A DNA stretch of 64,000 bases, from contig CAWCUG010000002.1 of NCBI GenBank assembly GCA_963798785.1, positions 2,210 through 66,209 on the forward strand, written 5' to 3'. The first letter of the stretch is position 1. Every line of letters starts with the position of its first letter. The notes beneath the pieces were generated by a model, which saw nothing but the letters and a program-made list of their open reading frames with translations, searched no databases and was not told the origin of the DNA. Shown here piece after piece: positions 30,915 to 61,601 of the stretch. The position numbers were made by a program, and so were the translations under genes. The stretch is from an uncultured Alphaproteobacteria bacterium (lineage in GTDB: Bacteria; Pseudomonadota; Alphaproteobacteria; Sphingomonadales; Sphingomonadaceae).

Positions 30915-32869
<1,955 letters not shown>

Positions 32870-32907
32870 TTACCGGCCCGAGCGCGTCGCCGCCAGCCGT
32901 CGCTTGC

Positions 32908-33153
32908 TCAGGCCTCGTCCGAGCGTGTGCCTTCCTGGCGGGTGGCAAGCCAGATTCCCAGCAGCACGCCGGCCGCGCCGGCCGCTCTGGTGAGGCCCGG
33001 GCGCCGGGCAAAGGGGCCGACCGCCTTCCTCCACCACGACGGGCCGTCGCGCCACAGGGCGACATGCTCGCGCGGGCGAAGAAGCGCCATCATTCCATCG
33101 CCGATCGCGGCGAGTGCAACCGCTTCGGTAATTCGCCTGCCGATGATGCTCAT
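32908..33153 (-). CDS. Small (81 aa) membrane protein of unknown function
   Basis: MSIIGRRITEAVALAAIGDGMMALLRP...GVLLGIWLA; GGAGG RBS; EcfG-type promoter upstream. Confidence 0.65.
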   Translation of the reverse strand: MSIIGRRITEAVALAAIGDGMMALLRPREHVALWRDGPSWWRKAVGPFARRPGLTRAAGAAGVLLGIWLATRQEGTRSDEA

Positions 33154-33174
33154 GAGAAACCTCCTGCCATTCGC

Positions 33175-33200
33175 AACAGCGCGAGCCGGCCAAGGGTTCC
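33175..33200 (-). promoter_or_regulatory. EcfG (general stress sigma) promoter
   Basis: Minus strand GGAAC-N17-TGTT about 20 nt upstream of ATG 33153. Confidence 0.6.
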
Positions 33201-33379
33201 GATTGCAGGAGACTGCCCTCGCTGGCGCCGGGACGCCAGCGAGGGAGTCCACGCACGGACCTGGGCCGAGCGTGAAAGGCTTGGGCGCGATTGGAAGCGA
33301 CTCGCTTCAACCGCACCGGTCATCGAATCAGCTACAGCAGTCCTTCATCGACAACAATCGTTAACCGTCGCCGCGCGGC

Positions 33380-35933
33380 CTAGAAGACCTTGCGGATTTC
33401 GAACTCGATGGTGCGGCCTAGCGGGTCGCGGTACGCCGGCTGGTACTGGAGCGGAGTTGCTCCCGATGAATTGCGCACGCGCTGCCGGTCGTTGGTCACG
33501 TTCACCACGTCCAAGGACAGGCGCAACCCCCTTGCCCAGGGCGAATGCGGAAGAACCCGCTTCACGTCGGCGAAAGCGCGGAGATTGAGCAGGAGCACCG
33601 GCGAGAAGTCGAGGACGTCGGTCGCTCCTCCGATTCGGCTCTCGAGGCTGCTCGGCCCGCGCCACGTTACCCCGAGCCGTGCGCCCAGGCCACCGGAGGT
33701 GACTGCCGCGGTCCCGTCGAGCTGATGGCGAAGGCGGCCACCGCCGATCCCGATCGCGCCGCCGCCCAGCAGGTCGACCGGATCGAGCCCCTGGCGAATG
33801 ACGATCTTTTCGGAAAACACGACGGTGTGGTTGGCGGTGAGCTGCAGGTATGTCGTCGGTGATGCCGCGCGCGCGGGCGCACCGGCCGCCGTCGCGGAGG
33901 AACGAGTACCGCCGCCGAGCCTGGCATTCATGCTGAGGCCCCAGCGAAGCCGCTTTTCGCGATCCGAATCGAAGTTCACCGGCCGCAGGTCGACTGTGGT
34001 CAGGGTCCCGTCCGAATCGCGGATGAACCTGTCGGGGAAAGCCAGCATGATCGCGGCGCTGGAATCGGGAAGCGAGGAGACGAAGTTGCGGGTGTCGGTG
34101 TCTGCATAGTCCGCGTTCAATTCGAGGTTCAGCCGCTTGACGAGCCCGGAACAGGGCAGTGACCCTGCGGATCATCGTCCGTTGCGGCAGCAGGGCCGAA
34201 TTGCCGCCGCTGATCTGCGAAACGTCGACCGTCTCGCCGGTCAGCGGATCGAACACCCGCACCTGCGAGGAAATGGTCGTCGGGTTGGCAAGCACCTGCA
34301 TCGACGGCGCCGTCTCGTTCTGTTCGATGCTTCCGCGGAAGCGAAGGGCCGGCACCGGCGCCCAGGCAAGCGCCAGCGCATAATGGTCGAGATCGCCGGC
34401 ATCGGAGAAATGGACGTGGCCGAACTCTGCAGTCCCGGTCCAGTCGCCGATCTGCGGAGCGACATTGTTGGCGCGGCTGGTCAGCGGAATGTCGAGCGAG
34501 CCGCGGATCGACTGCTCGTTGCGGCGGAAGGTGCCGGTCCCGAATCCGGTGGAAAAGGTCGTTTCCGAATGCAGCCGGTTGAAGGCAATGCGCCCCTCCA
34601 CGGTGGCCACGGCCGGGCCCGCCGGGAGGGTGAATGCCGGCCCGGTCAGGGACAGCTGGAGCAGGTCCGAAGCGGCGCGGGCCGAGGTTCTGTCGTTGCG
34701 CAGCGGGATGAGGTCCGACAGGTCGGTCGTGAACGGATCGAGCGAGTCGCCGAGCGGTATGGCGCCGAACGCCGCCTGCCGGTCCGACCGCGAGCGATCG
34801 AGCGATTCGCTGTGCTTCGCGTTGAGGTTCCCGGTCCACTTCCCGAAATCGGCGAGGAAGGTGACGCTGCCTTCGCCGCTGTTGCGCCGCGAGCGATAGT
34901 GCAGCGGGTCGGCACCATAGAAGGCAAGGGCGACGTCCCTCGAGAATGGTGAGGCCGGATTGGTCGCTGGAAGTATGAAGAGCGAGCTGGGCAGGCCGCG
35001 CAGGGAACGGCTGCTGTTGCGGCCCAGGCGAACGCTTGTCGTGAATTTAAGCCAAGGCGCCAGGCGGCTGCTGAAAGTGCCGTTGAGCTCGTAATTGCGG
35101 GTATTCGGACGAAGGGTCCGGAAGCGGCCGATGTCGGTCAGGTTGGCGCTGTTCGCGTTCGCCGCGAAATCGGCGAGTGTCGGCGCGGAGCCGGTTATTG
35201 CGGCGACAGTGACGATTTGCCCCGCAGCGGCGCTGAGCAATGGGTCGATTTCGCCGCTGCTGTCCGGATAGCCGACGACGTTGCCCGACTGGGCGAAGGG
35301 GTGAAACGGATCGGGCTGGACGATTGCGCGGTCGCTTTCGAGGAGCGAGCTTTCGTCCCTGACCCTGAGGGCGAGGTTGGCACGGGTGTCGCCGCGGATC
35401 CGGGTCAATATGGCTTCGCCGCGAATCGCGTTCCAGTCCCCTTCGGTCGCAACCTTCGGAGCAGCGGTGAGGGTCGCCGTCTTGACCTCGCGCTTGAGCG
35501 TCAGGCTGATCACGCGTTGCGACGAGGTGCCGCCAACCCGGACGGCCGAGCCGCGCGGCAGAACCTGCGCGTTGCGAAGCGCTTCGATCGGGAAGGCGCC
35601 GATCTCGTCGAGATCGTTGACGCGTTCGCCATTGACGAGGATGACCGGCTGTTCGTCGTCTCCGCCGAGCTCCGCCTGGAGTTCGGCAAGCAGTTCATCG
35701 ACCGTACTGACGGCGTAGCTGTCGATAGCATCCTGATCGAGATTGCGTTCCGGAGTGATGTTCGGGAACAGCGGGACGCCGGTGACGATTACGTCTTGCG
35801 AATGCTCGTCGGGTGCTGGCTGCGCACCGGCTTCGAAGTCGCTGGCGGCCAGCGGTGCGGACGTGCCGCACAACAGGATTGCAATCGCCAGGCGGCTGAC
35901 GCGTCTTCGGCCATTCGCATTCGTTTGATTCAC
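33380..35933 (-). CDS. TonB-dependent receptor; frameshift at about 34146
   Basis: Signal peptide, TonB-box-like DVIVTG, plug ILVNG...EALRNAQVLPRG, C-terminal RDPLGRTIEFEIRKVF in ORF 33380..34120; removing one G in CCGGGCTC restores ...LFRLVKRLNLELNAD. Confidence 0.85.
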
Positions 35934-36050
35934 TTGCCGTCCTTCCCAGAAAAGGCCGCACTTCCAGTTCTAGCGGCCGTCCTCCGCGCTACCCCGCCTG
36001 ACGCAAGCGCCAGGCAGGGAGTTCACGCGCGGTTCTGGGCCGCTAGTGAA

Positions 36051-36983
36051 TCAGGACGCCGGGAGAGAGTTCGTCGGCGGCGAATCGAAGGTCGTGCCGG
36101 CCAGAGTCGGCGCAGCGTTGAACGTCGTCGTGCTGCAGCCGCCGCCCGTGTAGCCGTTCTTCGCGGTCCACGAGCCGCCCTTCTTGCCCGGCGAAATGCA
36201 GGCAAGAGCGCGAATTCCGTTCGGCGTGTAGGTGCCGGTCTCGGTGTAATTCACACCGTCGACTTGGCCGCCGAGCGACTGGTTGCTGGCAGTCGTCGAA
36301 TAGCCTTCGTCGACGTCGTCGCCGGCTTGCGAGTTGTCCGAATAGTCCTCGGCGTTCGTCCACTCGCTGGTGGTCACGTCATGGCCACCGCAATTTTCGT
36401 TGGTCCCGTTGGGGCCGCCATTGCCGTTGCCGCAGCCGTTGTTGCCGTCGCCATTTCCGCCGGTCTGCAGGTTGTTGCCGTTGTTGTTGCCGTTATTGCC
36501 GTTGCCCTGACCTTCGCCGCCACCGCCGACGTGAACCGTCGTGGTCACATAATTTTCGACGTGGCACGACCAGTGGTAGGTCACGGTGTGCGTGAAGTCG
36601 GCTTCGCTGTCGTACAGCGTGTTGTCCCAGATCTTCTGGCTGAACACTGCCTGGCCCCACATGTTGGGGCTGCCGCCGGTGCGGGACAGCGGATTGGCGG
36701 CGCCGACGAAGCCGGCGTAGGAGAAGGTGCCTCCGGTGTCGGGGCGGAAGTTGACGTCGCGCTCGCTGCCCTCGACCAGCGTCGTCGGGCCATCCTCGCT
36801 GTAAACGTTGGTGACGGTCGCGCGCCACTTGCTCGGATCTTCCTGGTTGTTGACGTAGAGGTCGTCGCAGACCAGCTGCATTTCGACCGTGGTCGGGTTG
36901 GCGGCCTGGGCCGGAGCGGCGAAGCCGACAGGTGCAATCGATGTGCCGACCATCGCGGTCGCAGCCAAAAGTGCGCGTTTCAT
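36051..36983 (-). CDS. Secreted hypothetical protein with Gly/Asn-rich insert and six Cys
   Basis: Sec signal ending APAQA, strongly GC3-biased codons, GAGG-like RBS; no family recognised. Confidence 0.8.
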   Translation of the reverse strand: MKRALLAATAMVGTSIAPVGFAAPAQAANPTTVEMQLVCDDLYVNNQEDPSKWRATVTNVYSEDGPTTLVEGSERDVNFRPDTGGTFSYAGFVGAANPLSRTGGSPNMWGQAVFSQKIWDNTLYDSEADFTHTVTYHWSCHVENYVTTTVHVGGGGEGQGNGNNGNNNGNNLQTGGNGDGNNGCGNGNGGPNGTNENCGGHDVTTSEWTNAEDYSDNSQAGDDVDEGYSTTASNQSLGGQVDGVNYTETGTYTPNGIRALACISPGKKGGSWTAKNGYTGGGCSTTTFNAAPTLAGTTFDSPPTNSLPAS

Positions 36984-37197
36984 TTGATGAGTCCCTCGTT
37001 TCCCGGTTGAGCAATGCCGCCGGGACGCCCAGAACGACTCGTTGGCGAATTTGCGTTTACCGGTCGCCGGTTAATCCCAGTAGTTACCGTCAGTTAACGC
37101 TAACTAAGGATAGGGTCTTCAGCGTCCCAAAAGGGGGCGCCGGCATTTGGGGGCCTGCGGGTTGAGGTAATCGTGTTCGTTTGAATGCGGCAGCGCG

Positions 37198-37811
37198 TCA
37201 GTTGCCGACCCACTCGGCGGCCCGGATCGCGAGCTCGGTACGATTGGCGACCCCGGTCTTTTCGAAGACGCTGTGCAGATAGACCTTCACCGTCCCCTCG
37301 GTAATTCCGAGCTTTTCGGCGATGTCGCGGTTGCGCATGCCCTGGCGGACCAGCTTCACCAGCTCGGCCTCGCGCGGCGACAGGAGCGAGCGATCGCGGG
37401 CGCTGTTCGCCCGGGTCGCCTCGGCATTGAGATGCGGATCGATCCATTCGTCGCCGGCGCGCACGGAATCGAGGCAATCGATGAGAAGCGCCGGATCCGA
37501 CGTCTTGAGAAGCACTCCGTCGACGCTGAGCTTGAGAGCTTCGGCGAAACCTGCTTCGTCGATGGACGCGGTGAGGAGGATTACCCGCCGGTGATCTTCG
37601 GCCGTGCGCACCTGGCGAAGCACGTCGAGCCCGCTTCCCCCGGCATCTGGATGTCGAGGACGACCAGCTCCGGGTCGTGATCGGCAATCGCCTGGAGCGC
37701 TTCCGAGCCGCTCCCGGCCTTGGCGACAAGTTCATAGTCGCTGCCGCGAAGCATGGCTTCGACAGCGGCCTGAATCATCGGGTGATCGTCGGCAAGAACA
37801 ATTCTGGTCAC
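37198..37811 (-). CDS. NarL/LuxR-family response regulator; frameshift in G-run at about 37637-37641
   Basis: LADDHPM, VLDIQMPG, LLKTS; HTH LSPREAE...GMRNRDIAEKLGITEGTVKVY; five G where six are needed. Confidence 0.9.
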
Positions 37812-39431
37812 GGCCGCACCTCCGGCTTGAGTGGCAGTGTAATGGAAACATTGGTGCCGCTCTCGCGGCTGGCGAGCATTAGGGTCCCGTTCGCATCCTC
37901 GACTCGTTCGCGAAGCGACCACGGCTGGCCCTTCTTCAGCCGATCGCTGCCGCTTCCATCATTGCTGATGTCGAGCCGCAACTGCGCGTTCTCGGCGGTC
38001 AGCTGGACGTCGACCAGCTTGGCGCCGCCGTGGCGGACGGCATTGGCGACGGCCTCGCGAACCAGCTGGTGGGTGTCGAGGTGAAGCCGGATGGGCGCTG
38101 CGACATCGGCGACTTCTGCGGCAAAGGTGCAGCGGATGTCCCACTGGCGCGCCAGGTGGTCGCACAACGTCTTCAGGTCAGCGGCGAGGGCTGGAAGCGA
38201 GACGCTGTTTTTCCGAAGTGCACCGATTGCCGATCGCAGCTCCTGCTGTTCCTGCAGCATCAATTGTTTGAGGTCCTCGAGCTCCCTCTCGGGCCTCTCG
38301 CCGACGCGGAGCGAGCGCTTGACCGCCTCGATCCTGAACGTCGCCCCGGCAAGGAACTGGACGATGCTGTCGTGAAGGTCGCGGGCGAGCGCAAGCCGGG
38401 CGCGTGCGCCGGCACTTTCCTCGACCGCGGTCAGCAGCGCGTGACGCTGGATGTCGGCCGCGAGCGCGCTTCCGAGCCAGTCGCCGAATTCGACGTGGTC
38501 GGTGCACAGGCCCTTCACTCCACCGAGCAGGAGTAGCGCCTCGCCGGCGTCGGTCCGCACCGGTACCGCAAGTCCGCTCGCGATTCCGAACTGCTCCCCG
38601 AGCGCCCGCCTGACGAGCATCGTGGCGTGGCCGAATTGCATCCTTCGGTTAAGTCCGCGGCTGAATGCCCGGTCACGGGGAAAATCGAAGAGGAAGGAAG
38701 CGGGCGCAACGTCGACCTTCGTCGCGATGTTGGTGGTCGAAATCGCCCCGCCGTCCAGGACGATTGCCGTCGTGTGATGGGACAATGCGGCCCGCCAGAG
38801 CAGGACGCATGTGGTGGCGCCGGTCAGCCGGGCGGCCCGTTCGAGCGCCTGCTCCAGCGGCGAATCCTGCGGCGACGGGTCGCCAATCTTCTCGTCCTTC
38901 GGCGATCCCGGCGACGAAAAGCCGTGATTGATCCCGAACCAGATCAGGATGGCGGAGAGAATGACCAGGTTGCCGCTTCTGATGATGAAACGCTGCAGGT
39001 CGAAGTCGCCACCCGGGCGATCCCCGGCGAACAGGCCCGCGGTGAAGTAGAGGAGGATGACGGCCGCTGCCGTGACAGCCGTCTCGCGCCAACCCCAGCG
39101 GATCGCCGCCGACAGGACCAGGAAGACGAAGAAGACGAAGAAGGGGCTGGTGTAACCGTCGGTGGCGAAGACCAGCAGCGTGAAGACGGCGATATCGACG
39201 ACGTGGGCGACGCCGGCGAGCTTCGCGTCGAGCCACCAATTGTTCCAGGTGAGCGCCATCACTCCGACCGCAAGCGCGACATACATCAGCGAGCATCGCG
39301 TAGGTCGCAATTGCGCCCTGGGCCGGCTGGCTCGGATCGATCCAGATGGCGAACAGGAAGACTGCCGCGAGCACGGCTCGAGCGAGAGCGATAACCCGGC
39401 CGGACCGATGCTTGAGCAGACCGTCGAACAT
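37808..39431 (-). CDS. NarX/UhpB-type (HisKA_3) membrane sensor kinase; frameshift at about 39290
   Basis: N-terminal TM helices split between ORFs 38673..39431 and 37808..39310; ARDLHDSIVQ, EAVANAVRHG; GTGA coupling to the regulator. Confidence 0.87.
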
Positions 39432-39519
39432 CGAACCCCCGCCGCCCAGCGCAGCTATTAACTTTAAGTATAGCAGTTCGAAGCCGCGTGGAAGCGTCGT
39501 TGAACGCGCCGGTCGCCCC

Positions 39520-40074
39520 TTATGCGGCTAGCACCTGTGAGTGCGGCTGCGGCTGGTGCGAGCGCTGCAGGACCAGGCGATGGAGACGTGCCGGAACCTG
39601 CTCTGCGCGAGCGCAGCTCAACCGCGGGGCGACGAGGCCGGTCGGCTCGAAACCGAGCTTCTCGAGAACGCGCGCCGAGGCGGGATTGTCGAGGAAGTGC
39701 GACGCTTCCAGCGCCCGGAGGCCGAGCGCCCGGGCGATTTCGACGAGTGCCGCGCCGGCTTCGGTCGCAAACCCCTGGCCCCAGTGCGGCCGGGCGATCC
39801 AGTAGCCGAGCTCGACCGCGCCCGAACTGCGGCGGGCAAGCCCGCAGGAGCCGACGAGGCGAGGAGCGGCAGGCGTCCGCTCGGCAATGACGAAGGACGG
39901 GAGAATGGGGTCGCGAGGGGCAGCCAGGAAGGCCTCGGCATCGCGAAGCGCATAGGGCCACGGAGCGTTCGCCAGGTTGCGAACGATATGTTCGTCGGCA
40001 ATCGCCGCCGCCAAAGCCGGTGCGTCTTCGGGAAATCCGGGCCGCAGGAGCAGCCGATCGGTCCGCGCAAACAT
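39520..40074 (-). CDS. GNAT N-acetyltransferase (RimJ/RimL family)
   Basis: [41 protein letters not shown]. Confidence 0.92.
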
Positions 40075-40130
40075 CTCATCCTCCTCCCGCGCGCCCCTAG
40101 GAGGCGCGCGTTACAATTTCGGGAGAAGGC

Positions 40131-40167
40131 AAAGAAAAAGGGGATGCCCCTTCCGAGGCGCCCCCTT
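40131..40167 (-). terminator. Rho-independent terminator of rplU-rpmA
   Basis: Minus strand GGGGGCGCCUC-GGAA-GGGGCAUCCCC followed by UUUUUCUUU. Confidence 0.7.
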
Positions 40168-40245
40168 CTCCCTTGTTGGTCTTGATCTTTTAGAAGGATC
40201 TCGTCCGGGCCGCCCCTTGTGGGAACGGTCCCTTTCTGACCGTTC

Positions 40246-40512
40246 CTATTTCGATTCCGCTGCCGGCATGACGTGCACGTATTTGCGGCCGAGCTTGCCA
40301 TCTCGGAAGGCAACGGTGCCGTCGGTAAGCGCAAAGAGGGTATGGTCCTTGCCGATTCCGACATTGTCGCCCGGATGCCACTTGGTTCCGCGCTGGCGCA
40401 CGATAATGTTGCCGGCGCGAGCCGACTGGCTGCCGAACAACTTCACGCCGAGGCGCTTGCTTTCACTGTCGCGGCCGTTGCGGGACGAGCCGCCTGCTTT
40501 CTTATGTGCCAT
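40246..40512 (-). CDS. rpmA: 50S ribosomal protein L27
   Basis: [22 protein letters not shown]...RQRGTK...DHTLFAL. Confidence 0.99.
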
Positions 40513-40518
40513 GTCGAA

Positions 40519-41076
40519 CTACTTCTTCGCTGGTTTCTTGGCCGCGCCCTTAGCAGGTGCAGCATTTTTTGTCGACGCTTTCGAAGCGGGCTTTTCAGCC
40601 TTTGCCGGCGACGCCTTCTTCTCCGCCTTGGCCGGCGTGGCCTTGGCTTCGGTCTTGGCTTTCGCCTTGGCCGGAGTTGCGGTCTTGGCCTTGGCCTCGA
40701 CGCTCTCGCCGGCCGCAGCGGTCTGCGCGCCTTGCGCCTTGGCCGGAGCGGCCTTCTTCTCCGCCGGCTTTGCCTTGTGATCGCCGATGGCGACGATCCG
40801 CAGGATCGTGTGCTGCTGGCGGTGGCCCTGCTTGCGCCGGTAATTATGCCGGCGGCGCTTCTTGAAGACGGTGACCTTGTCGCCCTTTGCCTGGGCAATG
40901 ATTTCGGCCGCGACCTTGAGGCCGTCGGTCTTCTTCAGTTCCGACCCTTCGCCTGCGAGCAGGACGTCGCCAAGGGTGACGGTGTCACCGGCGTCTCCGT
41001 CCAGCTTTTCGACGACGATCTTGTCTCCGGGGGCGACGCGGTACTGCTTGCCGCCCGTGCGCACGACTGCGAACAT
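40519..41076 (-). CDS. rplU: 50S ribosomal protein L21 with Ala/Lys-rich C-terminal extension
   Basis: [14 protein letters not shown]...[17 protein letters not shown] plus a PAKA-rich tail of about 80 aa. Confidence 0.98.
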
Positions 41077-41133
41077 TGGCTTCTCTTCTGTGCTTGTGGC
41101 GCGCGCCAGGCTTGCCCTCGCGCGAAAGCGAGC

Positions 41134-41162
41134 CGCCTATGGCAGCGGCCCCTTCGTGTCAA
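41134..41162 (-). promoter_or_regulatory. Sigma70 promoter of rplU-rpmA
   Basis: Minus strand TTGACA-N17-TAGGCG, about 60 nt upstream of rplU. Confidence 0.55.
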
Positions 41163-41218
41163 CTGCGCCCTGGACGCTGCGAGGTATCGCGCTGCGCCGG
41201 CAGGTCGGGCGCTTGTCC

Positions 41219-41593
41219 CTAGTGCCGGTGTTCGGGCCGAAGCTGGTAGCGAACGCCATCGAAGCGGTCGAACATCGTTCCGATCGCAGGGTGGTCGACC
41301 GGCTCGTCGCTTTCGTCGTGGACCAGGTTCTGCTGGCTGACATAAGCGACGTAGGTCGACTCCGCGTTTTCGGCGAGCAAGTGGTAGAATGGCTGGTCCT
41401 TTGGCGGACGCATCATTTCAGGGATCGAATCATACCATTCGTTGCTGTTGGCGAATTGAGGATCGACGTCGAACACGACGCCCCGGAAATCGAGCAGCCG
41501 GTGACGAACGACGTCGCCGATGCCGAAGCGGGCGCGCGGAATCGAAGATTCGCGGCTGGAGGTCACTTCGGGTGAACGTTCTGCTTGCGGCAT
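41219..41593 (-). CDS. hspQ: Heat shock protein HspQ
   Basis: RFGIGDVVRHR...RGVVFDVDP...DQPFYHLLAE...YVSQQNL; ATG at 41593 (ORF track start 41602). Confidence 0.92.
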   Translation of the reverse strand: MPQAERSPEVTSSRESSIPRARFGIGDVVRHRLLDFRGVVFDVDPQFANSNEWYDSIPEMMRPPKDQPFYHLLAENAESTYVAYVSQQNLVHDESDEPVDHPAIGTMFDRFDGVRYQLRPEHRH

Positions 41594-56215: not shown

Positions 56216-56902
56216 ATGATCGAAGCCGAATGGTGGGACTATGAAACGCCCGAGGAGATGGCGGACGCGGTTGCCGGCGATATCGGCTTCATCATCGACA
56301 GCGCACTCGATGCCCGCGGCTCGGCGCTGGTCGCACTTGCCGCCGACGAAACTGCGCAGGCGATATTTCCCGCTGTCGCCGATGCCGACCGGCAATGGCG
56401 GCAGGTGATGGTGATCCCCACCGACGACCTGATCGTCGCGGTCGACGACGAGCGAAGCCATGCCCGCGCGCTTGCCCAGGCGTTCCTTCCCAAGGGCGCC
56501 CGGGTCGTTCCGATCGTCACTCCGCTCGACGATTACCGGCTCGCCGGCAATTCCGCCGATGCGCGGCTCCAGGACCTGCCGTGGCCGCCCGACCTCGTCT
56601 GGCTGAGCGTCGGCGACGACGGAAGCGCCGCCGGGAATCGCTGCGGGCCCGACCTCCAGGACGCGCTCGATGCGCCCAAGGCCCGGCGCGCGGTCGGGGT
56701 GAAGCCCGACGAAGGCGAGCCGCGGGTGACACTGACCCGCTCGTCGATCCTGTCGGCGCGGACCTCCTCATCACGCTGCGAGGGTGAAGAGAACAAGGAC
56801 ATGGTCGAGCAGGCGATCGCCGACGGCCACAGCTCGAAGCTGCCGATCGGCCGGGTGCTCGCCGAAGCCGAGCAGCCGATCGACATCCACTGGTGCCCGT
56901 AA
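56216..56902 (+). CDS. 6-phosphogluconolactonase-like protein with degenerate active site
   Basis: Overall pattern matches sphingomonad Pgl (MIEAEWWDY...DARLQDLPWPPDLVWL...RVTLT...IDIHWCP), but the GGxTP, D(D/E)R and DGHTAS motifs are altered. Confidence 0.78.
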   Translation: MIEAEWWDYETPEEMADAVAGDIGFIIDSALDARGSALVALAADETAQAIFPAVADADRQWRQVMVIPTDDLIVAVDDERSHARALAQAFLPKGARVVPIVTPLDDYRLAGNSADARLQDLPWPPDLVWLSVGDDGSAAGNRCGPDLQDALDAPKARRAVGVKPDEGEPRVTLTRSSILSARTSSSRCEGEENKDMVEQAIADGHSSKLPIGRVLAEAEQPIDIHWCP

Positions 56903-56903
56903 G

Positions 56904-58568
56904 CTATATCTCGTCGAGCTTCCGGCCCTCGCGTTTCGGGAAGGAACAGCAGCGAGACGACCACCGAAATGCCGGTGAAGACGGTCGCGTACCAAAGCCC
57001 CGAATAGATATCGCCGGTCGCCGCGACGATGGCGACGCTGACGGCGGGAAGGAAGCCGCCGACCCAGCCGATCCCGAAATGATAGGGGAAGGACATCGCC
57101 GTGTAGCGAACGCGGGTCGGGAACATCTCGACCAGCGCCGCGGCCTGCGGCCCGTAGAGCGCGGTGGCGCCGACGACGAACAGCAGCAGGATGGCGATCA
57201 GCACCGGCAAGTTCATCTGCGCCGGGTCGGCGCTGGCCGGATAGCCGCCCGCCTGAAGCGCCGCGCCAATGCTCTCGCCGCTGGACGTCTTGAGCTCCTT
57301 GAGGCTGGCGCCGGAAAGCCCCTGGCCGCCGCTAACCGGAACCGCGTGCGCCGCCGACCAGCACCCGAGTCTGCGCGTCCGGCGACGTGCGGGTGCTGTA
57401 GGAAATGCCGCGGCTGATGAGCGCGCTCTTGGCGATGTCGCAGGCGCTGGTGAACTTGGCGGTTCCGACCGGGTCGAATTGCGCCGAGCAGCTCGCCGGG
57501 TCGGTCTCGACCACGACCGGCGTCGTCTGCTGCGCGTGCACGAGCGCCGGGTTCACCGCCTTGGCGATCCAGTGCGAGCCGGGGAAATAGAGGATGCAGC
57601 GCAAGCGCCATCCCGCCGACGATGATCGGCTTTCGCCCGATGCGGTCCGACCACCAGCCGAAGAAGACGTAGAGCGGCGCACTGACGACCGTCATCAGGA
57701 CGAGCAGCAGGTCCTTCATCGACGCCGGCATGCCGAGCGACTTTTCGAGGAAGACCTGCATGTAGAAGAAGGTGAAGTACCAGACCGCGCCTTGGGCGAG
57801 CATGATCCCGAAAAAGGCGATGAGCACGCGCTTGAGGTTTTCGCCTTCGGCAAAAGCCTCGCGGAGCGGCGCCTTGGTGACGTTTCCTTCCGCGACCAGC
57901 CTGGAAAATTCCGGGCTCTCGGTAAGCTTGAGCCGCATCCACAGCGACACCCCCAGAAGCAGGACGGAAACGAGGAAGGGAATTCGCCAGCCCCAGTCGC
58001 CGAACGCGGCTTCGCCCATCCAGGTGCGCGAGACGAAGATGATCAGCATCGCCGCGAGCAGGCCGAACGAAGCCGTCGACTGGATCCACCCGGTCGCGGT
58101 GCCGCGGTTGTCGTCGGCGGAATGCTCGGCGACATAAATTGCCGCTCCGCCATATTCGCCGCCAAGCGCGATTCCCTGGAGGATCCGAAGGAGGATGAGG
58201 AGCGCCGGGGCAAGCACTCCCACCTGGCCGTAGGTCGGCAGCAGCCCGATGAGGAAGGTCGCTCCGCCCATCAGGCTGACGGTGACCAGGAACGCGCCCT
58301 TGCGGCCCATGCGGTCGCCGACGATCCCGAAGATGAGCGCTCCGAGCGGGCGGAAGGCAAAGCCTGCAGCGAACAGGCCGAGCGCCGCGATCAGCGCAGG
58401 GGTCGGGTCAAGCGCGGAAAAGAACACCTTGCCAATGACTGGCGCCAGCGAACCGAAGATGAAGAAGTCGTACCATTCGAACGCCGTGCCGGTCGACGAG
58501 GCGATGACCACCCGCGTCATCGACCATCGCTCGTGGTGCCGGGCTTCCGCTGCTGTCGCCATCATCAT
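56904..58568 (-). CDS. MHS-family MFS transporter (acetate/short-chain acid permease-like); frameshifts at about 57598, 57348 and 56927
   Basis: SSTGTAFEWYDF, FAFRPLGA, GDRMGRK, GGEYGGA, SDRIGRK, EMFPTRVRYTAMS, LPET; three frames join into one 12-TM protein ending RGRKLDEI*. Confidence 0.85.
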
Positions 58569-60552: not shown

Positions 60553-61601
60553 CTATGCGGCCTTGTCCATGTCGATGACGAAGCGATAGCGCACGTCGCC
60601 CTTCTTCATCCGCTCCCACGCGCTGTTGATTTCGCCCGGAGCGATATGTTCGACCTCCGGGTGGATGTCGTGCTCGGCACAGAAATCGAGCATTTCCTGA
60701 GTCTCCGCCAATCCACCGATCAACGAGCCGGCAACGACGCGGTTGCGCATGACCAGCGCCCCGCCGTGAAGGCCTTCGAGCATGTCGATCGCTCCGACGA
60801 TGACCATCACTCCGTTCGGCTTGAGCAGGTTGAGGTAGGGCGAAATGTCGTGAGCGACGGGAATCGTGTTGAGGATGAAGTCGAAGCGCTCGGCGGCCTT
60901 GCCCATCGCTTCTTGGTCGCTCGACAACGAGGACATCGTGGGCGCCGAGCTCGCGCGCGTCCTTGCCCTTTTCGGGTGAGGTGGTGAGCATTGTGACGTT
61001 GGCGCCCATCGCCGCGGCAATCTTGACGCCCATGTGGCCAAGGCCGCCGAGGCCGGCGATTCCCACGTTCTGGCCGGGGCCGACGTTGAAACGGCGAAGC
61101 GGCGAGTAGGTCGTGATCCCCGCGCACAGCAAAGGCGCCGCGCGCGACAGGTCCAGCTCGTCCGGGACTCGGCAGACGAATTCCTCGCGAACCACGACAC
61201 GATCGCTGTAGCCGCCCTGCGTGACGGTGCCGTCCTGCCGGTCCGTGCCGCTGTAGGTCATCACCATGTGCGGGCAGAAGTTCTCATGGCCCGACTTGCA
61301 ATGCTCGCACTCGAGATCGCTGTCGACGAGGCAGCCGACGGCGGCCTTGTCGCCCGGCTTGAACTTGGAGACGGCCGGAGCCGACGGCGGTCACCGTTCC
61401 GACGATTTCGTGGCCGGGGACCATCGGGTACTGGCTCATTCCCCAGTCGTTGTGCGCCATGTGCAGGTCGGAATGGCAGATTCCGCAATGGCTGATCTCG
61501 ATTGCGACATCCTCGGGCCGAAGGTCGCGGCGCTCGATCTCCATCGGGCCGACCTCGGATTGAGCGCTGGTCACGCCATAGGCTTGTGTCGTCGTGGTCA
61601 T
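60553..61601 (-). CDS. Zn-dependent NAD(P)H alcohol dehydrogenase (cinnamyl-ADH/YahK type); frameshifts at about 61373 and 60925
   Basis: [44 protein letters not shown] spread over three frames. Confidence 0.9.

Follow-up and report, generated by a model that had tools for sequence, protein, structure and literature searches.

The subject of this analysis is a 64,000-nucleotide stretch of DNA (hereafter the window: positions 2,210 to 66,209 of contig CAWCUG010000002.1, assembly GCA_963798785.1) from an uncultured alphaproteobacterium of the family Sphingomonadaceae, and in particular four minus-strand genes in it that lie between a GNAT gene and obg. They encode a histidine kinase (HK), a response regulator (RR), a signal-peptide protein (SEC) and an outer-membrane protein (OMP). 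I propose that they make up a regulator-controlled operon of an outer-membrane transporter and an accessory exported partner, a reading to which, taken as a whole, I assign a probability of about one half; import is the favoured direction of transport, and on that point my confidence is lower. The original prediction, made from the letters alone, had listed these four genes in this order, and its gene list and coordinates are borne out by open reading frames (ORFs) and domain scans.

In the proposed mechanism two adjacent transcription units, hk-rr and sec-omp, would act together. The kinase would phosphorylate the regulator, which is of the NarL class, and the phosphorylated regulator would bind TAAC/GTTA repeats and activate sec-omp, while a structured hairpin in the spacer between SEC and OMP may skew expression toward SEC over the transporter. 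SEC, stabilised by disulfides, would leave the cytoplasm by way of Sec and work in the periplasm or at the cell surface; there it might capture or present a ligand, which the barrel would import with TonB energy. The logic would be that of hemophore-type or HmuY-type partner/receptor pairs.

Conservation of the gene pair and its association with a two-component system

The SEC-OMP pair is the conserved core of the unit, with 36 loci across Sphingomonadales. An OMP ortholog lies directly beside SEC in every recovered locus (designated here by L numbers) with enough sequence, an arrangement also known from partner/receptor pairs of the hemophore or HmuY type. The two genes are mostly co-oriented and are convergent in five Sphingomonas/Novosphingobium loci.

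Adjacency of the kinase and regulator genes was counted over 29 non-redundant SEC-centred loci with usable flanks. HK-RR adjoins SEC-OMP in nine of these, in two unrelated chromosomal contexts: five have the rplU-rpmA-GNAT...obg context (the window, S. sabuli L001, L007, L009 and L043) and four an Erythrobacteraceae-type context (Tsuneonella rigui L032 and L033, Erythrobacter alti L021 and L042), whose carriers include two metagenome-assembled genomes (MAGs). In the second context HK-RR is upstream and co-oriented in L032 and L033, downstream and inverted in L021 and L042, and the kinases align over their full length, membrane block included, at 32-38% identity. A search from the kinase side added the GNAT-obg examples S. 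sinipercae L048 and L049. The order GNAT-HK-RR-SEC-OMP-obg is thus found in S. sabuli, S. sinipercae and several Sphingomicrobium MAGs, in agreement with the earlier claim that the four genes form a recurring neighbourhood. They seem to recur together beyond what inherited synteny alone would give, yet they are separable: the co-occurrence that had been put forward as a check holds for the nine loci above, but each pair is also found without the other.

Several SEC-OMP loci have features of their own. In those of the Novosphingobium type (L005:6166-7731, L017, L028, L030) the pair is preceded by a 521-amino-acid protein in which DUF2853 is N-terminal and an OmpA-like peptidoglycan-binding domain C-terminal, and no two-component system is present. 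The Sphingomicrobium MAG SMAG_U13612 holds two SEC loci on separate contigs (L012 and L013, one of them in an astAB context), and paralogous copies of SEC-OMP can therefore coexist in one genome. A link to sphingolipid synthesis was considered and rejected: an aminotransferase lies repeatedly near SEC-OMP in Erythrobacter-type loci, but is only about 30% identical to the Spt of the window, and is another member of the alpha-oxoamine-synthase family.

A divergent TonB-dependent transporter

The OMP gene (35933-33380) encodes an outer-membrane protein of about 850 amino acids. It is split by a frameshift, discussed below; relative to an intact ortholog, one half covers residues 3-605 (56% identity) and the other residues 606-857 (69%). 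Neither half matches a Pfam family at E<=0.01 or an NCBIfam model, and most orthologs are likewise without a Pfam or NCBIfam match: the ortholog of L007 reaches PF00593 (5.6e-11), that of L005 reaches Plug PF07715 (2.7e-4, below the cut-off), and the others reach none. Against PDB sequences the OMP family profile gave no match at E<=1.

Structure prediction was more informative. The AlphaFold2 model of the intact ortholog of L009, built on a 29-sequence alignment (A2), has a predicted local distance difference test score (pLDDT) of 83.9 and a predicted template-modelling score (pTM) of 0.78, and Foldseek aligns it with PfeA, PirA, FepA, Cir, ChuA and BtuB at E-values of 1e-25 to 1e-18 and probability 1.0, at sequence identities of 10-14%. 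PfeA, FepA, Cir and BtuB share the overall fold of the model (TM-score on target 0.56-0.71); OMP differs in being about 150 residues longer than the siderophore receptors and in lacking an N-terminal signalling extension. On this model, the OMP family is predicted to have the fold of plug-containing TonB-dependent transporters (TBDTs), and "atypical TonB receptor", as the gene had first been described, was a correct label, given that the ortholog fold matches TBDTs and that Pfam misses most members.

The N-terminus supplies a second line of evidence. Following the signal peptide, OMP reads ...QDVIVTG..., of which DVIVTG resembles a TonB box; those of BtuB (DTLVVTA) and FepA (DTIVVTA) may be compared. 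In alignment A2 the pattern I-x-V-x-G is kept across the family directly before the plug, with I57 nearly invariant, and in the L009 model the motif falls within a low-confidence N-terminal segment, again before the plug. The C-terminus is ...RKVF. A barrel with a predicted plug and a TonB-box-like motif points to import. A chaperone-usher or LptD/E-like barrel was also entertained for OMP and is ruled out by the TBDT fold matches, the protein's own plug and the TonB box.

The exported protein SEC, a proposed transporter partner

SEC (36983-36051) has an intact reading frame and encodes a 310-amino-acid protein with a signal peptide and a Gly/Asn-rich tract, as had been claimed for it. No match to SEC was found in Pfam or NCBIfam, nor among PDB sequences at E<=10. 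The family is small and essentially confined to Sphingomonadales, with 54 word-based matches, 192 clusters (50% identity) among 1.84 billion representatives, and 36 loci among 185,579 species genomes. All members have a signal peptide (alignment A1) and share the motif RTGGSxNMWG, a C-terminal Cys-loop CISPGKKGGxWTxKNGYTGxxC, further cysteines, and a short, conserved C-terminal tail S-[LV]-P.

The AlphaFold2 model of SEC (mean pLDDT 78.7, with 191 residues at 90 or above) consists of two beta-rich domains, at about residues 30-155 and 198-296, with the Gly/Asn tract and both termini disordered; across the family the linker ranges from absent to more than 100 residues. Compared by Foldseek, its best match in PDB had an E-value of 3.8 (probability 0.07) and its best match in BFVD one of 0.68. 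The structure matches ranked first pair SEC with long beta-hairpins from pore-forming proteins (E>3) and amount to noise rather than evidence; the predicted fold thus seems to be without a counterpart in the two libraries compared.

SEC also diverges quickly. Between L043 and L009 the kinase is 80% identical, the regulator 90%, OMP 66% and Obg 88%, but SEC only 27%, a pattern that fits an exposed role facing a ligand or an antagonist. In L049 the position of SEC is taken by a 194-amino-acid signal-peptide protein (L049:9477-10061) that is invisible to the hidden Markov model of the SEC family; it keeps a MKRALLA-type signal peptide and a similar C-x-x-P...KG...W...C loop, and could represent either extreme divergence or replacement.

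The kinase-regulator pair and the DNA elements upstream of SEC

Pfam identifies the kinase gene (39431-37808) by HisKA_3 (PF07730, 1.9e-9) and HATPase_c (PF02518, 8.9e-7), and its translation contains the H-box-like segment ...ARDLHDSIVQF.... From transmembrane helices predicted on orthologs, the kinase has six such helices joined by short loops, followed by an uncharacterised cytoplasmic middle region, HisKA_3 and HATPase_c; the same prediction gave no periplasmic sensor domain, and the membrane block matches 6TM_PilS (PF25323) weakly. With six helices, short loops and no periplasmic domain, the kinase probably senses its signal in or at the membrane or in the cytoplasm. The regulator gene (37811-37198) matches the Response_reg profile over positions 1-57 in one frame and 56-109 in the next, which also holds GerE (7e-16), and its acceptor region ...VVLDIQMPG... 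is conserved with orthologs. The kinase stop and the GTG start of the regulator overlap as GTGA, through which the regulator is predicted to be translationally coupled to the kinase.

The pair resembles NarX-NarL and UhpB-UhpA in joining a HisKA_3 kinase to a REC-GerE regulator of the same domain families, and its nearest NCBIfam matches are NarL, NarQ, MctS/R and UhpB/A. It belongs to none of the named equivalogs (NarXL, UhpBA, MctSR), for the scores lie far under the cut-offs, the best being NarL at 119 bits (cut-off 250) and NarQ at 68 bits (cut-off 553). In place of a periplasmic four-helix sensor, the kinase of the module has the weakly PilS-like six-helix membrane block.

The control region of the SEC-OMP operon (36984-37197) is AT-rich and carries an array of TAAC/GTTA half-sites; the AT-rich promoter described earlier is real in this respect, positions 37040-37130 having 51% GC against about 65% in the surroundings. 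Upstream of SEC lies the inverted repeat GGTAAC-N7-ATTAAC (37088-37070). Its general form, GRTAAC-N7-RTTAWY, occurs once in the window (0 expected). In eight distinct related loci it precedes SEC by about 75-130 nt, and some of these are astAB-context loci without an adjacent regulator. The exact TAAC-N4-GTTA has ten sites in 467 kb of loci, and eight of them, from several genera, fall within 260 nt upstream of SEC. A palindromic core CGA[GC]TCG is found 30-100 nt upstream of SEC in 22 of the 29 loci, a 77-fold enrichment, and reads CGAGTCG in the window (37041-37035). The arrangement looks like operators for a dimeric helix-turn-helix protein together with a promoter-proximal element, and the GerE-type regulator is the natural candidate for binding the TAAC/GTTA repeats. 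A promoter scan gave no sigma-70-like promoter, and the count of terminators was not above chance.

Between SEC and OMP is a structured spacer (35934-36050) with a GC-rich 12-bp hairpin lacking a U-tract; its minimum free energy is -63.3 kcal/mol, which against shuffles gives z = -4.46. As a candidate attenuator or stabiliser, it could set the SEC:OMP ratio.

Frameshifts in the assembly

The kinase, regulator and OMP genes each contain one 1-nt frameshift, all three of which the original prediction had missed. That in the kinase is near 39289 (...ATYAML / ..YVALAVGV...), that in the regulator near 37630, inside the MPG..SGLDVL segment (...DIQMPG / ..SGLDVLRQ...), and that in OMP near 34145 (...VTALFRA / ..LVKRLNLELNADY...). 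The frame switches agree across a plot of GC content at third codon positions by frame, Pfam domains that are split between frames, and comparison with intact orthologs.

Two explanations have to be weighed: errors of the assembly, or real lesions in genes that are decaying into pseudogenes and heading for the losses seen in relatives. Decay would account for frameshifts in three of the four module genes, and relatives have indeed lost the unit from this site, completely or in part. However, the same type of lesion is present in unrelated genes of the window, twice per gene: an MFS/sugar transporter gene (56563-58544) and a zinc-type alcohol dehydrogenase gene (60559-61559) are each broken up among three reading frames, and their Pfam domains carry on across the breaks, which suggests that the assembly is prone to indels. 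Furthermore, a soil metagenome yielded a 162-nt contig that differs from 39138-39288 at one position in 151 nt and lacks base 39289, which puts the kinase in frame, and comparison with homologs shows a single indel per affected gene and otherwise no stops, deletions or relaxed conservation. Given the frameshifted unrelated genes and the soil contig, the three frameshifts are very probably indel errors of the assembly, and decay of the genes is quite improbable; in the organism itself the module genes are probably intact and functional.

The regulator and transporter sites add little to this. At the former, one additional base at 37635 in a contig from a relative (3 mismatches in 39 nt) would restore the frame, which is suggestive only, and sequencing runs otherwise held only 35-nt conserved REC fragments from other organisms. 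For the transporter site (about 34145) no sequencing run covering it was found. Because single-base indels are frequent in this assembly, they matter for every ORF-based finding in the window.

Evidence for and against a regulated transport operon

Several findings weigh against the operon proposed here. At about two thirds of SEC-OMP loci, among them those near astA/astB (L002, L003, L006, L010, L013), no two-component system lies alongside. The same upstream elements are present there, and the protein that recognises them could therefore be another regulator encoded elsewhere. In L050, conversely, the order is GNAT-HK-RR-obg and SEC-OMP is missing, so HK-RR may act on other genes. The signal peptide of SEC is of type I, and no path is known for the protein through the outer membrane; it may therefore be periplasmic. 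It has no recognisable ligand-binding site and no structural relative in PDB or BFVD, which makes the role of ligand-capture partner an analogy only. None of the RNA runs searched for SEC holds the gene. Finally, the independent sequence check described above covers only one of the three frameshifts, that of the kinase.

From the first two of these points it might be argued that the genes are neighbours without a regulatory link, another regulator or an alternative sigma factor controlling SEC-OMP while HK-RR merely shares the slot and controls other genes. The TAAC/GTTA and CGAGTCG elements at loci lacking HK-RR and the lone HK-RR of L050 are as this would predict, and the kinase family is far larger than the SEC family (1447 matches at E<=1e-40 against 54 in an equivalent word-based search). 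What it explains poorly is the second, unrelated context, where full-length HK-RR orthologs lie against SEC-OMP in either of two orientations; inherited synteny would hardly be enough to produce this. The two-component system could, moreover, still be encoded elsewhere in genomes whose SEC-OMP is unlinked. I therefore regard a mere sharing of the slot as somewhat unlikely.

For the transport function itself, the closest parallels to a transporter with an exported partner are HmuY-HmuR of Porphyromonas and HasA-HasR of Serratia. There, too, a small extracytoplasmic protein is encoded beside a TBDT, and the two are presumably expressed together; plug, barrel and TonB box are common to those transporters and OMP, and chains of the HasR-HasA complex are among the structural matches of the barrel model (rank 41). 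The differences lie on the side of SEC, which has no sequence or fold similarity to hemophores or to other solved proteins: it does not resemble HasA, HmuY, HphA or other solved partners, its invariant residues include no conserved His/Tyr/Met heme ligands, and with a type-I signal peptide it is neither a lipoprotein nor a type-I-secretion substrate. Control differs as well, since HmuY-HmuR and HasA-HasR are governed by Fur or an extracytoplasmic-function (ECF) sigma factor, and the module has a NarL-class two-component system.

The opposite direction of transport also has to be considered, in which the TBDT barrel moves periplasmic SEC across the outer membrane, with the two-component system inducing both cargo and exporter. 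The only route known for this is secretion of the Oar-PopC type. Apart from a signal peptide, SEC shows no obvious means of secretion, its gene adjoins that of the barrel wherever enough sequence is available, and its disordered, conserved C-terminal tail, in which one proline is invariant, could serve for recognition. There is also a precedent for TBDT- and TonB-dependent protein secretion: Oar, a TBDT of Myxococcus xanthus with a functional TonB box, is reported to be needed for secretion of PopC, which first accumulates in the periplasm (PMC6434023). SEC, however, is not a protease and is unrelated to PopC, and strict gene adjacency like that of SEC and OMP is not described for Oar and PopC. 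The precedent is a single experimental one, the extracellular location of SEC is only putative, and import partners beside TBDTs are far commoner. The "export unit" of the original prediction has no positive evidence, and the predicted plug and TonB-box-like motif point the other way; I consider export improbable. Were SEC nevertheless exported through the barrel, it would join a single earlier example of TBDT-mediated protein secretion.

The regulated transport operon, if it holds, has some wider significance. TBDTs are the main route by which sphingomonads take up scarce or bulky nutrients. For most sphingomonad TBDTs no substrate is known. The present analysis defines a conserved subfamily of transporters that escapes standard domain models, an apparently obligatory partner protein with a confidently predicted, unmatched fold that diverges faster than its neighbours, and a candidate dedicated two-component regulator with conserved operator-like DNA elements, together a testable candidate regulon in the cultivable species S. 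sabuli, S. sinipercae, Tsuneonella rigui and Erythrobacter alti. One might go further and see in SEC a new class of fast-evolving extracytoplasmic co-receptors, with an unseen two-domain beta fold, that serve Pfam-invisible Sphingomonadales TBDTs in uptake or export switched by a membrane-embedded kinase responsive to an envelope or membrane signal. This extension I hold to be unlikely; if true, it would amount to a new system of protein-assisted uptake or TBDT export specific to bacteria with a sphingolipid outer membrane.

History of the GNAT-obg slot

The interval between GNAT and obg exists in at least five states in close relatives. In L044 it holds only a small ORF (GNAT - small ORF - obg) and in L050 only the two-component genes (GNAT - HK - RR - obg). 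The full order GNAT - HK - RR - SEC - OMP - obg is that of the window, L007, L009 and L043, and in L001, L048 and L049 it is preceded by genes for a metal-dependent hydrolase and a TetR regulator. In L045-L047, finally, the content is hydrolase - TetR - Nramp - iron permease. The earlier expectation that GNAT lies beside obg in relatives consequently holds for L044 but not for the others, which carry different cargo. The hydrolase gene, on the opposite strand, and its TetR neighbour were located at L045:9543-12905, L046, L047, L001:6050-7531, L048 and L049. The slot may gather metal-related cargo, which is at most a weak hint on what the transporter may handle.

Differing slot contents among close relatives are what a recent genomic island inserted between GNAT and obg would produce, and the original prediction had the module splitting the GNAT-obg neighbourhood in this manner. 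The remaining evidence is otherwise. GC content is 0.62-0.69 throughout, with composition and skew as in the flanks; there is no integrase or transposase and no tRNA among the ORFs of the window, and there are no flanking repeats beyond noise, so that the absence of an integrase and terminal repeats, already noted, is upheld and extends to tRNAs and compositional anomalies. Lineages with only about 65-88% identity in housekeeping proteins have the unit at the same site, and in a tree of concatenated housekeeping proteins from the flanks the carriers of the unit span the local tree: module-bearing and module-free taxa are not separated, and the window groups beside the empty-site L044. Such mixing implies at least two losses or gains.

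L050 is instructive here. Its gap between RR and obg (L050:9237-9465) still holds GTTAAC...CCGAGTCGC, followed directly by the hairpin known 3' of OMP in the window, and it looks like an internal deletion of SEC-OMP that left promoter remnants and the terminal hairpin behind. Flank-like composition, together with the lack of mobility genes and boundary repeats, suggests that the unit is old at this site and was lost in some lineages. I conclude that it is probably ancestral in the GNAT-obg slot, and wholly or partly lost in some relatives, and that it is, as far as these comparisons indicate, chromosomal and vertically inherited in a Sphingomicrobium-like clade; on the evidence of the flank tree and of the divergence among carriers, a recent island is highly improbable.

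The small ORF between OMP and obg (33153-32908, 81 codons, with its real start at 33153) had been taken for a stress gene belonging to the module. It has no family or stress-protein signature in Pfam or NCBIfam, where only a sub-threshold match to DoxX_2 was obtained, and it is 72% identical in amino-acid sequence to an 81-aa ORF in the empty site of L044 and absent from the other module-bearing loci. Its presence in the empty site places it in the ancestral GNAT-obg spacer and outside the module. Its product is a putative two-helix membrane protein.

Flanking genes and the 3' hairpin

The remaining genes of the locus, also on the minus strand, are a yccV-like gene (41602-41219, by ORF and domain scan), rplU (41076-40519), rpmA (40512-40246) and the GNAT gene, of the RimJ/RimL type (40074-39520), on one side of the module and obg (32860-31817) on the other. 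Beyond obg are genes for an epimerase-type reductase, an acyl carrier protein and a class I/II aminotransferase.

Downstream of OMP is a perfect GC-rich hairpin (33211-33249), found by fold computation and blastn, with the sequence CCCUCGCUGGCG-UCCCGG-CGCCAGCGAGGG (as DNA, CCCTCGCTGGCG-TCCCGG-CGCCAGCGAGGG) and a fold z of -4.48. The module ends on its right-hand side at this hairpin. An Rfam scan of 32700-41300 returned nothing at E<=0.1. By blastn it is conserved nearly base for base in L043, L009, L007, L001 and L044, and it is kept upstream of obg even in relatives without SEC-OMP or without any of the module. Possible identities are a terminator, a repetitive extragenic palindromic (REP)-like element and a regulatory RNA. 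In L007 a related copy of the hairpin also lies 3' of the SEC gene.

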